From Methanotrichaceae archaeon (GTDB lineage: Archaea > Halobacteriota > Methanosarcinia > Methanotrichales > Methanotrichaceae), in assembly GCA_963803145.1 (NCBI GenBank), contig CAWDLW010000027.1:64001-128000 (forward strand): a stretch of DNA of 64,000 nt, read 5' to 3'. Shown here one piece after another: positions 1-59,141 of the stretch. The notes below the pieces were generated by a model. The model searched no databases. It saw only the letters and a list, made by a program, of their open reading frames with translations, and was not told the origin of the DNA. Each line of letters starts with the position of its first letter. Within the stretch, counting starts at the first letter, position 1. Made by a program: the position numbers and the translations under genes.

Positions 1-2
1 AT

Positions 3-719
3 AACTGCCTGGCAGGAAACGGAAGACAGACAAACCTCATTCAGAGGGCTGATCTTATTGGAAACGCCACAGGCTGCAATAATTGCGTCAGTCAGGACCT
101 CAACGATCTGGATGCAATTGATAACTGTGTAACGGACTCAAACTTGACTCAATGGTCAATTATGAAGGCTGACACCATAGGCTCCTGGAATGGAGTAGAT
201 CAATGCACCGCATCCGATGCCTATGAAAACTGCCTGACATTGAGCGATCAGAAGCAGATGGCCGATTTTGATGCATGCACCACAGGTGATTACAATTGCG
301 TTTCTCAAGACCTCTACCAGGATGCTTGCAATAACTGCGTGACAACCTCCTGCCTCTGGCAGCAGACCGCCAAGGTAGCCGATATCCTTGGGAGCTACAA
401 TAGTGCCTACCAGGATAACAACCTCCAGTATGCAGATGATAACTGTCTGACGGGATCAGTATTGAACCAGATGATCTGCGATAGCGCTCAGATAACCGGC
501 ACCTGCAATGAGGTTGATCAGGGATCTTGCAACGCGATTGAGACTGATGCCTGCAACAACTGCCTGACCAATGCAGGAATGCTTCAGTCCATCAATAGTA
601 AGGCCCTCATAGCTGGCTGCAACAACTACGTCAATCACGAAGTCTACCTCGACACAGATTGCAACAGTCTGACCGGCGGAATGCTGTCCCAGATATCAAC
701 AATCGTTTCCAACGACTAG
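3..719 (+). CDS. Asn/Gln/Cys-rich 35-aa repeat protein, paralog 1 (5' end outside window)
   Basis: The frame is open from nt 3 (NCLAGNGRQTNLIQRADLIGNATGCNNCVSQ) and aligns with paralog 2. Repeats are GxxNxxxQ...NCLTG...Q and the protein ends QISTIVSND. Confidence 0.85.
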   Translation, partial: NCLAGNGRQTNLIQRADLIGNATGCNNCVSQDLNDLDAIDNCVTDSNLTQWSIMKADTIGSWNGVDQCTASDAYENCLTLSDQKQMADFDACTTGDYNCVSQDLYQDACNNCVTTSCLWQQTAKVADILGSYNSAYQDNNLQYADDNCLTGSVLNQMICDSAQITGTCNEVDQGSCNAIETDACNNCLTNAGMLQSINSKALIAGCNNYVNHEVYLDTDCNSLTGGMLSQISTIVSND

Positions 720-730
720 ACCTTTGATGA

Positions 731-753
731 AAGGCGAGAGCTTCTCTCGCCTT
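731..753 (+). terminator. 3' hairpin after paralog 1
   Basis: AAGGCGAGAG-ctt-CTCTCGCCTT is a perfect 10-bp stem just after the stop codon. Confidence 0.6.
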
Positions 754-990
754 CAGAAATTTTAACATACTGTAGTTTACATCAATATCATGAATTTTGA
801 ACATTGTCCTTCTTCAATATTTTGATATGGAATTGAAAAGCCGGTGATAAGTATTTCAGCTACAATTAGAATTTTCTTAATTTCCGTATTGATGGCATTT
901 TCTTAAGCTAATTTCCCTTTATTTTATTAGAGAGCAAAGCCGTATAAGTGTTAGTGCTCTGCGGTTATTCCAAAACCCACGTAGCACTTA

Positions 991-1010
991 GGAAAAATAA
1001 GGAGGCAAGT
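991..1010 (+). promoter_or_regulatory. Conserved leader/RBS of paralog 2
   Basis: GGAAAAATAAGGAGGCAAGT contains GGAGG and is identical to 2235-2254. Confidence 0.7.
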
Positions 1011-1011
1011 C

Positions 1012-1932
1012 ATGAGAAATCTTTTATTAATAGCCTTGGGCTTCTTAATGCTCGTATCAGCAGCAGCAGCCACAGGCAACTGTAACGATGTTTACACAAG
1101 CATTTATCAAGAGGCATCAGGAAATTGCATCACGGGCGATGTCAATTTAGCCCAGATAACAGATGCATCGTCGTTTGTCCTCGGCTCTAATAATGAAGTG
1201 GATCAGTGCATGGGCCTCAGCGCCGACGATAACTGCCTGACAGGCGTTGGAGAACAGACCAACCTCTGCCAGAGAGGCGATATGACAGGCAATGCAACGG
1301 GCTGCTACAATGATCTTGACCAGGAACTCGATTTGAATGCCTACTGCAACGATCTGACGAACAGCAACATGACTCAGTGGGGCATACAGGCTGGAGATGC
1401 AATCGGTAACTGTAACGAGTTTGATCAGTGCGCCGAAGCCGATGCCTGGTTTAACTGTCTCACCATGAGCGATCAGAAGCAGCTTTCGGACTTCAATGTA
1501 TGCGCGACAGGCGATAACAACTATGTCGATCAGAACCTCTATCAGGAGGCCGATGCTAACTGCCTGACGGGCTCCGAGCTCTGGCAGCAGACAGCCAAGG
1601 TAGCAGATATCCTTGGGTGCGACAACGAAGTCTATCAGGATTGCAACTACCAGTATGCAGATTGTAACTGCCTGACAGGCTCCATGCTGAACCAGATAAT
1701 TTGCGAGAACGCTCAGGTAACCGGCAACTGCAACTATGCCAATCAGGATTCCGAGACAGATGCCTTCAATAACTGCATGACAGGCGCAGGCATGCTGCAG
1801 ACCATCAGTGAGCAGGCTGTCATGGAGGGCTGCAACAACAATATCAATCAGAATGTCTATCTCAATACTGATAGCGATTGCCTGACCGGCGGAATGCTGA
1901 CCCAGTCGTCCTCAATAGTCTCCAACGACTAA
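1012..1932 (+). CDS. Secreted Asn/Gln/Cys-rich 35-aa repeat protein, paralog 2 (curli/Fap-like beta-solenoid candidate)
   Basis: Sec signal MRNLLLIALGFLMLVSAAAA, then about 8 repeats of x9-GxxNxxxQ-x8-NCLTG-x4-Q. Ends SSSIVSND. Confidence 0.9.
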   Translation: MRNLLLIALGFLMLVSAAAATGNCNDVYTSIYQEASGNCITGDVNLAQITDASSFVLGSNNEVDQCMGLSADDNCLTGVGEQTNLCQRGDMTGNATGCYNDLDQELDLNAYCNDLTNSNMTQWGIQAGDAIGNCNEFDQCAEADAWFNCLTMSDQKQLSDFNVCATGDNNYVDQNLYQEADANCLTGSELWQQTAKVADILGCDNEVYQDCNYQYADCNCLTGSMLNQIICENAQVTGNCNYANQDSETDAFNNCMTGAGMLQTISEQAVMEGCNNNINQNVYLNTDSDCLTGGMLTQSSSIVSND

Positions 1933-1943
1933 ACACTCATAAA

Positions 1944-1968
1944 GAAAGGCGAGAGAAACCTCGCTTTC
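1944..1968 (+). terminator. 3' hairpin after paralog 2
   Basis: GAAAGGCGAG-agaaac-CTCGCTTTC, followed by a T-rich tract. Confidence 0.55.
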
Positions 1969-2255
1969 AAAATTTTATTAGCTGTCTTTATCCTTTTTTC
2001 TCTACATAGCGTTCAAAGGTTAAATGTTTTATACAGTTTAGAAGTCTTGACAGAATGCCATAAGAAGATATTTATTGATTATAACAGCAGATAAGTACGG
2101 CTATTACTGTAAAGATTCTCTTAATCCTCTTATTGATAACGGTTTCTAAACCAAGTTTCCTTAAAACTTATAAAAGAAGCAAGCAATGTTAATGTTAATG
2201 TTCCGCTAGAGCTTTCAGCTCTTGCAGAACAATGGGAAAAATAAGGAGGCAAGTT

Positions 2256-3290
2256 ATGAAAGGTCCTATATTAGCACTGTGCTTGCTGCTGCTAGTGTCT
2301 GCGGCAGGTGCAACAGGAAGCTATAATTGTGTAAATGTATACGGTAGTCAAGAAGTGTCAGGAAACTGTCTTACTGGAGCTGCTTTTGCCCAAGTAACTA
2401 ATGTAGATGCCAATCTATTGGGCACCAACATTGATGCTACCCAGTTCCTGGGCCTTCAGGCAAATGATAACTGTATAACAGGAAGCAATAACGGCGAGAC
2501 TAACTTCATCCAGGCCGGCGATATGGTAGCCAATGATACAGGCTGCAATGACTTTGATCTTCAGGCTGAGCTTTTGGCTGCGAACGAGAACTGCCTAACT
2601 ACAGGAAACATTACTCAGATTGCCGCACAGCATGCAGATACTGCAGGCAGCGACAACTATGTAGTCCAGGCAACAGCTGCCGCATTAGGTACAGTCGATC
2701 TCCCATGCTTCTGCCTAGGCAGCCCCAACTGTGTGACGAATAGCGATCTTAGCCAGCTATCTGCATTGAATGCATGCGTTACAGGCACCGATAACCTTGC
2801 AGCTCAGGTAGCTCTGCAGGGCACCTTCGACAACTGCCTGACCAACAGCGTTTACTACCAGCAGGCATCTCTCAACGCCGATATTCTCGGATGCAACAAC
2901 AACGGCATCTGCTTTGATGGAGCCGGATCCTATGTTGACACTATGGATAGCGTAGTTGGACCTTACTCAGATGGCACAGGCATATGCCTGCCGATACAGG
3001 TCAGTGTCCAGTACACAGATGATAACTGTGTGACAGATTCTCTGTTCAACCAGATGAACTGCATGGATGAACAGGTGACAGGAGAATGCAACAGTGTTGG
3101 CCAGTTCGCCCTTTCCGGTGTATCTTATGACTGCTTGACAGCAGGCAGCTTGCTCCAGATGAGCAACTTTAAGGCTGCAGAACTCGGATGCAACAATGCT
3201 ATCGGCCAATCCATCGAACTCAATAACGCTTGCAACAGCATAACTGGCGGCAATATTATCCAGCAGGCTACAGCCAATACCAACGATTAA
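2256..3290 (+). CDS. Secreted Asn/Gln/Cys-rich 35-aa repeat protein, paralog 3 (with loop insertions)
   Basis: ATG 2256 follows the conserved GGAGG leader. Signal MKGPILALCLLLLVSAAGA, same repeat, ends QATANTND. Confidence 0.9.
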   Translation: MKGPILALCLLLLVSAAGATGSYNCVNVYGSQEVSGNCLTGAAFAQVTNVDANLLGTNIDATQFLGLQANDNCITGSNNGETNFIQAGDMVANDTGCNDFDLQAELLAANENCLTTGNITQIAAQHADTAGSDNYVVQATAAALGTVDLPCFCLGSPNCVTNSDLSQLSALNACVTGTDNLAAQVALQGTFDNCLTNSVYYQQASLNADILGCNNNGICFDGAGSYVDTMDSVVGPYSDGTGICLPIQVSVQYTDDNCVTDSLFNQMNCMDEQVTGECNSVGQFALSGVSYDCLTAGSLLQMSNFKAAELGCNNAIGQSIELNNACNSITGGNIIQQATANTND

Positions 3291-3316
3291 AACTGCAATA
3301 CTACCAGAGGAATAAA

Positions 3317-3338
3317 AGGCGAGGATTTACACTCGCCT
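3317..3338 (+). terminator. 3' hairpin after paralog 3
   Basis: AGGCGAG-gatttaca-CTCGCCT, then a T-run. Confidence 0.5.
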
Positions 3339-3498
3339 CAAACTATTTTTATCAAAAAGATGTTGGTTCTTATTAATAGAGGCTCCTAGCTCATAAGTGT
3401 AGGAAATAAGATCCCACACGTTAATGAATTCTACACTTTTTTAAGTAAGGTACTATATTGGATACCGTTCTCGGCAAGTATCACTGGGCTTGATCGGA

Positions 3499-4687
3499 CT
3501 AGTGCAGCATAACACAAGTTTTTTATCCTAGCAAGTCCTTATGATCGCTAATCATGTCGAGGAAAACAATATTCGTCGTAAAATTGACAGATGAGGATCG
3601 GGAATATCTGAACCAGTTTATTCGCCATGGAAAGGCATCTGTAAGAAGCGTGACTCGTGCCAGGACACTGCTCATGGCAGACGAAGGTTACTCCAATAAA
3701 GATATCGTAAAGATTCTAAAAATAACCAGACCTACGGTTAACAGTGCAAGGAAAAGGTACTGCCAGGAAGGTTTGGACTCTGCAATAAACGATAAACCAA
3801 GAAGCGGCGCACCTCCAAAGATAGATGGAAGGATTGAGACACAAGTTACCCTTCTTGCCTGTTCGAAACCACCGGAAGGCAAATCGACCTGGACTCTGAA
3901 GCTTTTAGCCGATAGGCTCGTGGAAATGGAGGTAATAGAATCCATATCTACCATGACCGTTCAGAGGATCTTAAAAAAAGCGAGACCAAGCCTTGGCAGA
4001 AGGTTAGATGGTGTATTGGCGAGATAACAAGCGATTACATCATGCATATGGAAGATGTGCTGGATCAATATGAGCAACCCTATGATCCTAAGCATCCTTT
4101 AATCTGCATGGATGAGATGCCATGCCAATTGATAGACAACGTTTTAGTTCCTATTCCTCCTAAACCTGGAAAATCACAAAAAGTCGATTTTGAATATCGC
4201 CGTAATGGTACATGCTGTGTTTTCATCGCCTTTGATCCACATGCCCGTTGGAGAACAATATCTGTTGAAGAACACCGGACGAAAATTGATTATGCCCATT
4301 TTATGAAAGGGCTTTCCCAGAAATATCCTGAGGCAGAATACCTTAAAGTTGTCCAGGATAACCTTAACACTCACTCATCTGGTTCATTTTATGAAGCATT
4401 CTCGCCTGAGGAGGCGTTCCAGCTTGCCAAGAAGTTTGAGTTCCATTTTACTCCAAAGAAGGGTAGTTGGCTTAACATGGCTGAGATTGAGTTCTCGGCT
4501 CTTTCAAGGCAATGCTTGAACCGACGAATTGGCGATATCAAAACTTTAGCCAAGGAAGCGAAAGCTTGGGAACAGGATCGGAACAGGGCTAAAGTAGCTA
4601 TTCGATGGAAGTTCACCAAAGCCAATGCAAGAGAGAAGTTCTGTAGGCATTACCTTAAGATAAAGAATTAATGTTATGATGTACTAG
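3499..4687 (+). mobile_element. IS630-family element, copy A
   Basis: Ends are CTAGTGCAGCATAACA and TGTTATGATGTACTAG (14/16 inverted match including the CTAG/TA target). Nearly identical to 38155-39343. Confidence 0.95.
3554..4671 (+). CDS. IS630 transposase (two ORFs joined by a -1 frameshift)
   Basis: HTH ORF 3554-4027 and DDE ORF (CMDE, QDNLNTH, SWLNMAE). The A7G slippery site at 3973-3980 leads into KSETKPWQKVRWCIG in the -1 frame. Confidence 0.9.
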
Positions 4688-57631: not shown

Positions 57632-58494
57632 AAATGGCTTCAAACTGTTACCCCTGCATCCTCGACAGAGCGAAGTTCGAGTGTGATCTGGTATTCTCTG
57701 ATGAGCCGGCGAAGAAAGCTGCAATGGAAGAGCTACTGGACTACATGGCATGTCATAAAGGCGGTGTGCCGGCCCTTGTAGGAACTGAAAGGGAGCGGAT
57801 AATAAAGAGACGAAGCGGGTGCCCAGATCCTTACCATGGCCTGAAGGATGAGAGCAACCGTTTAGCAGAGAGGATTCTTCCGATTGCAGAGCAGTTTTAT
57901 TCAAAATCGGAGAATAAGCTGGAGGCACTGATAAGAATTGCAGCCGCAGCCAATTCAATGGAGTTCGGTGTCAAGGGGCACGACTTCAGCAATTCGACCT
58001 TTGGAAATTATTTCGCAAAAACACTGGAGGAAAGGCTCGAAGGGGATCTGGAGAAGGTAAAAAACCTATTAGACGGCTTTAAGAACATCTTCTACCTCAC
58101 GGATAACTCGGGAGAGGTTATATTCGATCTCTTTGTGATATCTAAGCTCAATGATATGAATAAAAGAGTGATAATAGGATCGAAATCCGAGCCTATACTC
58201 AATGATGTCACTGCTGATGAGCTTCGCGGTCTGACCGATAATGAAATAATATCCACAGGCTCAGTCGTTGGGACATCTCTCGAGTGTATCAGCCCTGACG
58301 CTCTCGCGCTTTTGCTCGATAAAGACTGGCTCATAATATCCAAGGGTATGGGAAATTTCGAGACCATGTCGGAGTTTCAAGGAATGCTGAAGGGCAGATT
58401 GATCTATATTCTGCGCGCCAAATGCGAACCGGTTGCCGATAAGCTAGGGGTGCCAAGGGGAACGCTCGTAGCAAGGACTATCGATCAGCGATAA
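57628..58494 (+). CDS. DUF89 / ARMT1-like damage-control phosphatase
   Basis: CYPC, DPY, DNSGE, PILNDVT, SKGMGNFE, KC. Confidence 0.9.
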   Translation: MKMASNCYPCILDRAKFECDLVFSDEPAKKAAMEELLDYMACHKGGVPALVGTERERIIKRRSGCPDPYHGLKDESNRLAERILPIAEQFYSKSENKLEALIRIAAAANSMEFGVKGHDFSNSTFGNYFAKTLEERLEGDLEKVKNLLDGFKNIFYLTDNSGEVIFDLFVISKLNDMNKRVIIGSKSEPILNDVTADELRGLTDNEIISTGSVVGTSLECISPDALALLLDKDWLIISKGMGNFETMSEFQGMLKGRLIYILRAKCEPVADKLGVPRGTLVARTIDQR

Positions 58495-59141
58495 TACATA
58501 TCGCTTTCCTCACAGGTAGGCACTACAGGCAGATCAAACTCCAGGGCCTCCAGAGAGAAGTTCAGGCCGGTGAGGGATTGTACCGCCACTAGAAGATTCT
58601 TGGCTGCCTCGAGGTCCACAGGATCATCGCCTGAAGTTGTTCCAAGAAGACAAATGCCGTTTATCCCGTATAGTGGGGCAAGCCCTGCAAGGAGGCCGTT
58701 TATTCCACCGATGGCCCCAGTACGCAGCAGAGTAATTCCCAATTTTTCCAATTTTTCAGCCGTTTCAATATCACTGGCAACACCCAGGACGTTCTCCCTA
58801 GTATCTCCAACGTAAGCAGCGAGAGTGATGATATCTGTAACTTTAAGATCTCTTGCAGCTCCAAGGATCTCGCCCGCGAGAGCATGCATCTCCCTGATCT
58901 CCAGGGGCTGGGCATCACCAGAAAGCACAAGAATATCCTCTCTGCTTTGAGAAGCCTTCAGCTCAGCATGTAGTAGGTATGAAATGCCATCCTCAACCAT
59001 TACTTGTGCAGGAAAGCCTGATGAAAAAAAGGGCTTGACAGTGTGGCATTCGAGGGCAGTAGCCAAGAAATCTGCCGCCACCTTGCCAACGCTTCCGATT
59101 CCTGGCAGGCCGCCGATACAAATGGTGCCGGAGCTAAACAT
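58485..59141 (-). CDS. PAC2-family proteasome assembly chaperone
   Basis: GLPGIGSVGK, FPAQV, GDAQP, IGGINGLL, C-terminal MYYR. Confidence 0.85.
   Translation of the reverse strand: MFSSGTICIGGLPGIGSVGKVAADFLATALECHTVKPFFSSGFPAQVMVEDGISYLLHAELKASQSREDILVLSGDAQPLEIREMHALAGEILGAARDLKVTDIITLAAYVGDTRENVLGVASDIETAEKLEKLGITLLRTGAIGGINGLLAGLAPLYGINGICLLGTTSGDDPVDLEAAKNLLVAVQSLTGLNFSLEALEFDLPVVPTCEESDMYYR

Follow-up and report, generated by a model that had tools for sequence, protein, structure and literature searches.

Tandem array and paralogs

We analyzed a 64,000-nt stretch of the genome of a Methanotrichaceae archaeon (hereafter the window; positions 64001–128000 of contig C27 of assembly GCA_963803145.1), focusing on window positions 3–3290, which carry genes for secreted proteins built almost entirely of a 35-residue repeat. 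The source genome (G000) spans 4.13 Mb in 51 contigs, with 99.3% completeness and 6.8% contamination. A sequence-only reading of the window had reported at least three adjacent co-oriented paralogs and suspected that the array continues leftward. Both points are confirmed: the open reading frames (ORFs) at 3–719 (cut at the 5′ end), 1012–1932 and 2232/2256–3290 are present, the first of them starts outside the window at C27:63760, and two further paralogs lie upstream. The segment is the right-hand portion of a five-gene tandem array (a1–a5), and five dispersed paralogs on contigs C16, C44, C42 (one each) and C8 (two) bring the genome total to ten. The genes of the array are as follows.

C27:60889–61965, left of the window: paralog a1
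C27:62455–63387, left of the window: paralog a2
C27:63760–64719, plus strand: paralog a3, whole gene, 319 aa with 22 Cys; window 3–719 holds its 3′ part (238 codons and the stop)
Window 1012–1932, plus strand (start at C27:65012): paralog a4, 306 aa with 21 Cys
Window 2256–3290, plus strand (start at C27:66256): paralog a5, 344 aa counted from ATG 2256

For a5, the in-frame ATG at 2232 is a less likely start than ATG 2256, which has a GGAGG site 6–8 nt upstream, as in all paralogs. Sequence comparison indicates that the family members are real genes under selection: the ratio of nonsynonymous to synonymous substitution rates (dN/dS) was 0.18–0.40 in 14 of 15 pairs among six paralogs, synonymous divergence being saturated in the a1–a3 pair. 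The protein repeats are also old, because no DNA-level repeat accompanies them; Tandem Repeats Finder detected none in window 1–3400 except one 6-bp triplet.

Repeat anatomy and composition

The proposed layout, a signal peptide followed by about eight copies of a 35-aa repeat, was recovered by two approaches. BLOSUM autocorrelation of the mature a4 chain gave positive values at lags 35 (+0.31) and 71 (+0.04) alone; at all other lags from 5 to 79 it ranged from −0.19 to −1.10. A hidden Markov model (HMM) of the repeat found eight units in a4, each with an independent E-value of 5e-17 to 8e-12, and 7–9 units in all 40 family proteins scanned. The N-termini, with Lys/Arg, a hydrophobic stretch and then an Ala-rich end, look like Sec signal peptides. 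In a4, the signal peptide (residues ∼1–22) is followed by a first half-repeat without the long strand (23–48), seven full repeats (49–298) and an 8-residue C-terminal strand (299–306); residues 23–306 are thus entirely repeat, with neither cap nor extra domain.

Across 304 repeats the fixed positions are occupied by G (99%), N (95%), Q (80%), N (84%) and, at the close of the unit, Q (100%), with small hydrophobic residues alternating between them. The earlier claim of fixed G, N, Q and C positions therefore stands for the first three, at 80–100%; family-wide, the ladder Cys of the N-C-L-T-G side is present in only 50% of repeats and otherwise replaced by S (20%), D (8%), T (5%) or K (3%). The third repeat has 40 aa instead of 35 and holds a nearly invariant N-A-T-G (window 1285–1296, in the region of a4 residues 92–95), which is the family's single conserved N-glycosylation sequon and falls in the same column in relatives.

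As proposed, the proteins, of ∼31 kDa, are strongly acidic and nearly free of Lys/Arg: the mature chains of the three window genes contain 32–41 D+E, 1–6 K+R and 19–22 Cys, with 19–22% N+Q, and their computed pI of 4.05 is the floor value of the routine used. Proline is lacking in a2, a3, a4 and the C16 paralog, and occurs one to four times in each of the other six.

Family range

The proteins form a lineage-restricted family that is exported, anchor-less and very acidic. No sequence match to the family was found in Pfam, NCBIfam or the Protein Data Bank (PDB). Searches of Pfam-A at E ≤ 10 with the three window proteins and six relatives gave no curlin match, and the family profile searched against all PDB chains, CsgA 8c50 included, returned only an unrelated match at E 0.24. 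Nothing beyond a meaningless Pfam match (E 5) and the C-x-T array pointed to ice-binding. Larger collections held 11 matching clusters in 5.8 billion and 51 matching representatives (one of them false) in 1.84 billion proteins, the sole named homologue coming from a “Methanotrichaceae archaeon” metagenome-assembled genome. In the ESM Atlas the best scores (0.77 and 0.76) lay under the useful range, and a single-protein scan of viral contigs found no relative.

Within its lineage the family is patchy. At E ≤ 1e-5, the family profile matched 27 of the 99 further genomes sampled from its own taxonomic family, including 3 of 54 in the largest genus sampled, and none of 101 genomes from the five other families of the class. 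Full-length members with the 35-aa repeat occur in only 4 of 16 genera sampled, and other genera carry shorter relatives (∼248 aa) in which the repeat has a 29-residue form. Longer relatives (406–648 aa) consist of a signal peptide and repeats and nothing else; four of five lack any Pfam match, and P0051 has one match to GH43_C2 (E 2e-4) that, at 21.6 bits, falls short of the 22.7-bit cut-off. P0046 (2902 aa, E 4.5e-9) was rejected as a relative, being a Ki-67/FHA protein. In the literature on Methanothrix/Methanosaeta sheaths, amyloid, beta-solenoids and archaeal curli-like proteins we found no description of the family; the supplementary tables of PMC11576556, which lay outside this search, could list its genes.

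Predicted fold

AlphaFold2, run for a4 on a 35-sequence alignment, returned an all-beta model with a predicted local distance difference test score (pLDDT) of 92.2 and a predicted template modelling score (pTM) of 0.87, in which every repeat has the pattern strand (∼14 residues)–turn–strand (∼11)–turn–strand (3). The a5 model has the same coil pattern at pLDDT 82.7, with low-confidence loops at residues 150–154 and 218–244. On these models, the fold is very probably a wide, two-faced, flattened parallel beta-solenoid. Each protein would form eight 35-residue rungs, every rung running through a long strand, a G-x-x-N arc, a second strand, the short N-C-L-T-G side and the closing Q, and the inner ladders would be built of the conserved G, N and Q and of small hydrophobic residues.

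We compared the a4 model with 48,161 chains using VIA-align. The top matches were flattened parallel beta-helices of the SufB/SufD/SMS type (Z 19.6–20.1, root-mean-square deviation [rmsd] 2.6–3.2 over 230–237 residues), followed by the curli subunit CsgA (8c50; Z 18.2, rmsd 8.9 Å over 199 residues), and ordinary pectate-lyase-like beta-helix enzymes and adhesins scored Z 10.7–13.6. Foldseek against the PDB gave no match at E ≤ 1e-3, with TM-scores of ∼0.1. We rejected a pectate-lyase-like helix (Beta_helix/NosD, with three-sided coils of ∼22 residues), given the 35-aa coil, the lack of a Pfam match and a Z well below that of the SufD type.

The Fe-S scaffold proteins SufB, SufD and SMS (9h78_B, 4dn7_B, 1vh4_A, 5awf_A) are the best geometric match, sharing the flattened right-handed parallel beta-helix with long strands, but their identity to the family is 6–7%, with no sequence relation. 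They are cytoplasmic and carry extra terminal domains, whereas the family has a signal peptide and repeats only; the common fold shows no shared function. Among other solenoids, the Cys-rich antifreeze beta-helices of insects have short repeats with regular Cys/Thr arrays, 12-residue coils, inward Cys and obligatory disulfides, and bactofilins are cap-less cytoplasmic beta-helices that polymerise end to end.

Chain ends and predicted assembly

The chain and the coil are out of register. Residues 23–48 of a4 amount to a rung minus its long strand, and residues 299–306 to one surplus long strand. Both monomer models (a4 and a5) place the end of the signal peptide in the missing first-strand position. 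With an HMM built from 73 internal repeats, the last 8–9 residues of the signal peptide align to the end of the long strand, with a median gain of 8.5 bits relative to the truncated segment and of 2.8 bits relative to a shuffled prefix (a gain in 28 of 34).

When two copies of a4 residues 23–306 were modelled together, the interface score (ipSAE) was 0.47/0.47/0.50, compared with 0.02 for the best of three controls; for reference, 20 of 30 proteins whose solved form is a homo-pair attain this mark, as does 1 of 23 whose solved form is a single chain. The two-copy runs agreed in ≥ 93% of their contacts, and the partner pLDDT was 81–82. The predicted interface is head to tail, residues 269–306 of one copy facing residues 23–57 of the other, and its pairs (N276–N25, L291–I40 and 303–53) keep an offset of ∼251 residues, so that the ladders continue in register. 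The C-terminal strand of one subunit occupies the slot that the signal peptide holds in the precursor model. An uncapped monomer and homo-oligomer that stack end to end are what the sequence-only reading had expected of the models, and the two-copy prediction lends in silico support to open-ended polymerisation.

These features suggest the following course of assembly. Removal of the signal peptide would leave the first rung without its long strand. After export, subunits would stack head to tail, each using its C-terminal strand to complete the first rung of its neighbour, and such stacking would build an uninterrupted, curli-like fibre or matrix outside the cell. Until then, the slot in the precursor may be filled by the end of the signal peptide, which would keep this end closed. 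We give a head-to-tail extracellular polymer a probability of about one half on the present models. The earlier description of a beta-solenoid fibre subunit with strands longer than those of curli thus holds in silico for the wider-coil, uncapped solenoid and its head-to-tail contact; fibre formation and function are what we infer from these.

Several points weigh against a polymer. Exactly eight repeats are kept in most members, and the net charge of ∼ −30 to −48 per subunit should counter assembly unless bridged by cations. The shuffled-prefix control indicates that the signal-peptide match is mostly composition plus the invariant Gly. End rungs are not clearly set apart by conservation, with mean column entropies of 1.82 (R1) and 1.99 (R8) versus 1.99–2.13 for inner rungs. 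The interaction controls were unrelated proteins, with no other solenoids among them, and generic docking of open beta-edges could explain the interface. No dedicated nucleator, anchor or chaperone has been established, and the six sequencing runs located are of DNA, with none of RNA. All structural statements here, fold and interface alike, are predictions from models, and whether a side chain faces in or out was read from substitution patterns alone.

Some of the same observations favour the strongest alternative, a secreted or surface beta-helix that does not polymerise and serves, as a monomer or small oligomer, as a rigid scaffold presenting a binding face for a glycan, mineral, partner cell or sheath. 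The near-fixed repeat number, the unremarkable conservation of the end rungs and the strong negative charge, which disfavours self-association, all fit such a protein, as does the fact that many of the fold neighbours are adhesins or glycan enzymes. We nevertheless consider it possible rather than probable: a cap, an anchor, a second domain and a catalytic-family match are all absent, the homodimer prediction is open and head to tail, not a closed dimer, and passed its controls, and the offset of the chain ends supplies exactly the strand needed for the neighbour's rung.

Comparison with curli and Fap

The curli repeat has been defined as 23 ± 5 aa, with two N-x-h-x-h-x-Q strands joined by X-G-X-X arcs (PMC10192328). 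The family does not fit this definition: each repeat has three strands, and the period is 35 aa. At the level of the repeat, the likeness is confined to the local G-x-x-N-x-V-x-Q grammar. The resemblance to CsgA/CsgB extends further in outline. Both are secreted and all-repeat, with inner Asn/Gln ladders and several paralogs per genome, and the family is modelled as a cap-less beta-solenoid like that of curli. In both, an X-G-X-X arc is followed by N-x-hydrophobic-x-Q, outward residues are polar or acidic, and half-repeat ends shape the subunit junction of a head-to-tail stack, which for the family is predicted; the fold match to CsgA has the Z of 18.2 noted above. The differences are the longer repeat, the third short side, the many Cys, the archaeal host and the large rmsd to 8c50, and the family is known from sequence and models alone.

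The suggested membership in curli or Fap is not supported: no Pfam family matched at E ≤ 10, the family profile matched no solved chain, and the Curlin repeat model had no sequence match in family proteins. For FapB/FapC, we found no Pfam or NCBIfam match and no Fap-like neighbours, although the presence of a Fap model in these libraries is unconfirmed. Pfam scans of the neighbours of the array and of other family loci agreed with the earlier observation that no csg or fap export genes are visible, finding no nucleator or export genes of the csgB/E/F/G type; a curli-type export pore would presumably be superfluous in an archaeon that lacks an outer membrane. The family thus resembles curli in grammar and predicted assembly, yet fails membership both in curli and in the archaeal sheath proteins (SH) discussed below.

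Cysteines and metal(loid) context

The number of Cys per protein ranges from 1 to 25, both in 35 family members and within the set of ten paralogs in this genome. Cys columns are located in two places, the G-x-x-N arc and the short side, and their substitutes are S, D, E, K, N and T. Non-ladder Cys are gained or lost between paralogs of 65–83% identity without paired partners, and totals are odd in some members (21, 25). No match to VKOR, DsbB, DSBA or Thioredoxin_4 was found in the genome, while control genomes did match. The genome, at 4.1 Mb, has only four loci with DsbD_TM; DsbD-type proteins are exporters of reducing power.

Because of the polar substitutes, the unpaired changes, the odd totals and the lack of a disulfide-oxidase match, we read the Cys as exposed rather than as a disulfide core, and the “disulfide-reinforced” fibre of the sequence-only reading is weakened accordingly. 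Judging from the substitutions, they would lie on both narrow edges and are probably exposed and often reduced; exported thiols may stay reduced because no disulfide-oxidase family was found. Lateral or inter-fibre cross-links, or sites for thiophilic metals, are more likely than a fold-stabilising disulfide core, with low confidence in any specific role. Obligatory intramolecular disulfides between neighbouring arcs (position 11 and position 12 of the next rung) were rejected, as a3 retains only one partner at two sites.

The positions and substitutes of the Cys, together with their range from 1 to 25 on one scaffold, have a second explanation, an extracellular matrix that handles thiols or metal(loid)s. 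Exposed Cys and Asp/Glu would bind thiophilic metals or metalloids or carry persulfide, whether or not the protein is polymerised. That no disulfide-oxidase family was found fits this, as does the gene context: 4 of 23 family loci tabulated in six genomes lie ≤ 4.5 kb from both an ArsR regulator and a DsbD_TM–thioredoxin fusion, and G000 has only four DsbD_TM loci in all. These four loci (G000 C16, G026 C12, G015 C25 and G014 C1) fall in three genera, and some also neighbour ArsP, an SBF-family (ACR3-like) transporter, a rhodanese, and an LMWPc phosphatase or a methyltransferase. The association is not specific to Cys-rich genes, however, since two of the four loci carry Cys-poor members (3–4 Cys). 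The array in the window has no such neighbours, loci in related genera may share ancestry and hence be non-independent, and no metal-binding motif was matched. We regard this explanation as unlikely.

The family genes at G000:C16:112000–128000 (L030; also L026, L043 and L049) sit in or beside arsenic-resistance/thiol-redox islands, which include a secreted double rhodanese.

More speculative still, and in our view very improbable, is a polymer uncapped by secretion whose Cys form rows along both fibre edges and bind metals, metalloids or sulfide, giving a metal-sequestering or electron-conducting filament. Here the signal peptide would also serve as the solenoid's first strand, and cleaving it off would open the slot for the C-terminal strand of the next subunit. 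Typical beta-strand spacing is ∼4.8 Å, which would be the distance between Cys on adjacent rungs if it holds, and this group of methanogens is known for direct interspecies electron transfer.

Promoter block and neighbouring genes

All ten paralogs share one upstream layout, as seen by alignment: a block of 58 nt containing a TATA-like element, a ∼60–80-nt leader and GGAGG. This includes paralogs only 38% identical in protein. A genome-wide nhmmer search found the block upstream of every one of the 10 paralogs (E ≤ 1.2e-8); elsewhere, a single site scored E < 1. An apparent conservation of “GKIRRQVM” upstream of the starts arises because the GGAGG site is conserved. The ten paralogs are probably co-regulated, since each has its own copy of one conserved promoter. 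The elements in the window, with the right border of the array, are listed here.

876–933, plus strand: promoter block of a4, starting with CTTAA, with a TTGAT-type element and a TATA-like T/A run at 918–933, ∼79 nt before the ATG
1001–1005, plus strand: ribosome-binding site (GGAGG) of a4, 6 nt upstream of its ATG
2120–2177 (C27:66120–66177), plus strand: promoter block of a5 (nhmmer E 5.1e-9)
3554–4671, plus strand: IS630-type transposase in two ORFs (HTH_32 and others at 3554–4027, DDE_3 at 4042–4671), the right border of the array and outside the family

The sole copy of the block outside the family (E 2.6e-4) precedes a 149-aa secreted protein at C5:9930–10379 (L053:931–1377), which has an 80% identical counterpart in the sister genome G004. 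The C5 protein resembles the first half-rung at its N-terminus and, over its C-terminal ∼55 residues, is homologous to the conserved C-terminal end of a multi-copy family of secreted proteins of ∼235 aa; it could be an adaptor between the solenoid and the ∼235-aa family, or a chimeric relic. The ∼235-aa family was found in every one of the 16 genera sampled (55 of 61 genomes), often as tandem clusters; it has an invariant Cys-containing C-terminal motif and no Pfam or PDB match. In this genome it is both tandem and dispersed (C25:99381–104057, C25:48151 and C8:355059; L060–L064).

A candidate reader of the promoter block is a small winged-helix regulator of the HTH_45 type (∼97 aa), encoded no more than ∼1 kb from a family gene at three loci (L045:7288–7581, L048:5433–5723 and L050:4800–5087), which fall in two genera. 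At C44:13988–17789 (L032, L052; L028, L037, L040), a Cys-poor paralog is followed by three same-strand secreted proteins of ∼232, 387 and 308 aa without Pfam matches. Homology of this cluster was checked in two genomes (39–54% identity), and two more have the same order and sizes; the three proteins are candidate partners or simply conserved synteny.

The array is flanked by a phosphoribosyltransferase gene before it and by the IS630-type transposase and a SecD/SecF gene after it. The insertion may have disrupted ancestral synteny; in G026, family genes sit between a phosphoribosyltransferase and an ArsR/rhodanese pair. At C27:58475–59074 (L024:8475–9071), 1.8 kb upstream of the array, a 199-aa ORF encodes about six Cys-rich repeats (C-x-x-N-P-x-C-x-[WY]-V-[ND]-G-x-C-x-C) and a Pro-rich tail, with no Pfam match. 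It overlaps the end of the preceding ORF (57900–58517), which bears a signal peptide, and neighbours a 336-aa secreted protein with DUF7282. Two further odd Cys/Pro-repeat ORFs, at C42:86563–86967 and C44:13223–13792, lie near family loci, one of 134 aa with a C-P-T-G-x-K-C type repeat and one of 189 aa with about nine copies of an N-C-P-T-P-G-I-P-T-T-P-A-P unit.

Comparison with the Methanothrix-type sheath

The sheaths of this group have been described as amyloid-like, with hoops thought to be disulfide-linked (PMC10593813; PMC11576556). In PMC11576556, the core of SH is given as two sheets of six antiparallel strands with cap domains, SH proteins are reported in all Methanotrichales, and the plug proteins of the sheath are described as unidentified. 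MspA, a sheath fibre protein of Methanothrix thermoacetophila, is given as 60.9 kDa (PMC6242892). The sheath proteins are like the family in coming from the same organismal group, in being secreted, multi-copy and tandemly duplicated, in forming amyloid-like beta assemblies and in having Cys proposed as linkers.

A structural part of such a sheath, be it hoop, hoop linker or spacer plug, is a third alternative for the family. The amyloid-like sheath with its disulfide-linked hoops and the plug proteins without an assigned gene speak for it, as does the C5 protein, which joins the family promoter to the C-terminal segment of a universal multi-copy secreted family. Two contrasts make this a distinctly improbable reading. 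The core sheath role that the earlier mention of MspA had raised is disfavoured because the family is patchy (27/99 in its own family, 3/54 in the largest genus and 0/101 elsewhere in the class), whereas SH is reported throughout the Methanotrichales. The modelled parallel solenoid (8 × 3 strands, uncapped) also differs from the published antiparallel core with its caps; that no SH structure was among the top 50 structural matches of the a4 model carries little weight by itself. MspA differs in size, with about twice the mass of the family proteins. The distribution of the ∼235-aa family resembles that reported for the SH proteins in PMC11576556, and it may be the SH family.

Implications

Functional amyloid-like solenoid fibres are well studied in bacteria, in curli and Fap, while the archaeal amyloid-like surface structures known to us are sheath proteins of a different topology. 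If the head-to-tail polymer proposed here is correct, the family would be a second, unrelated archaeal one, in which the curli solution of Asn/Gln ladders, glycine arcs and open ends arose independently in archaea, and such fibres could do without a machine for export across an outer membrane. A simple, testable rule of assembly follows from the shift in register of chain against coil, and the proteins, being small, repeat-only and without known domains, should be easy to express and test. Methanotrichaceae are relevant to methane emission and to anaerobic granules, and their aggregation, metal handling and cell-to-cell contact would all be touched by a matrix fibre whose surface thiols are programmable.

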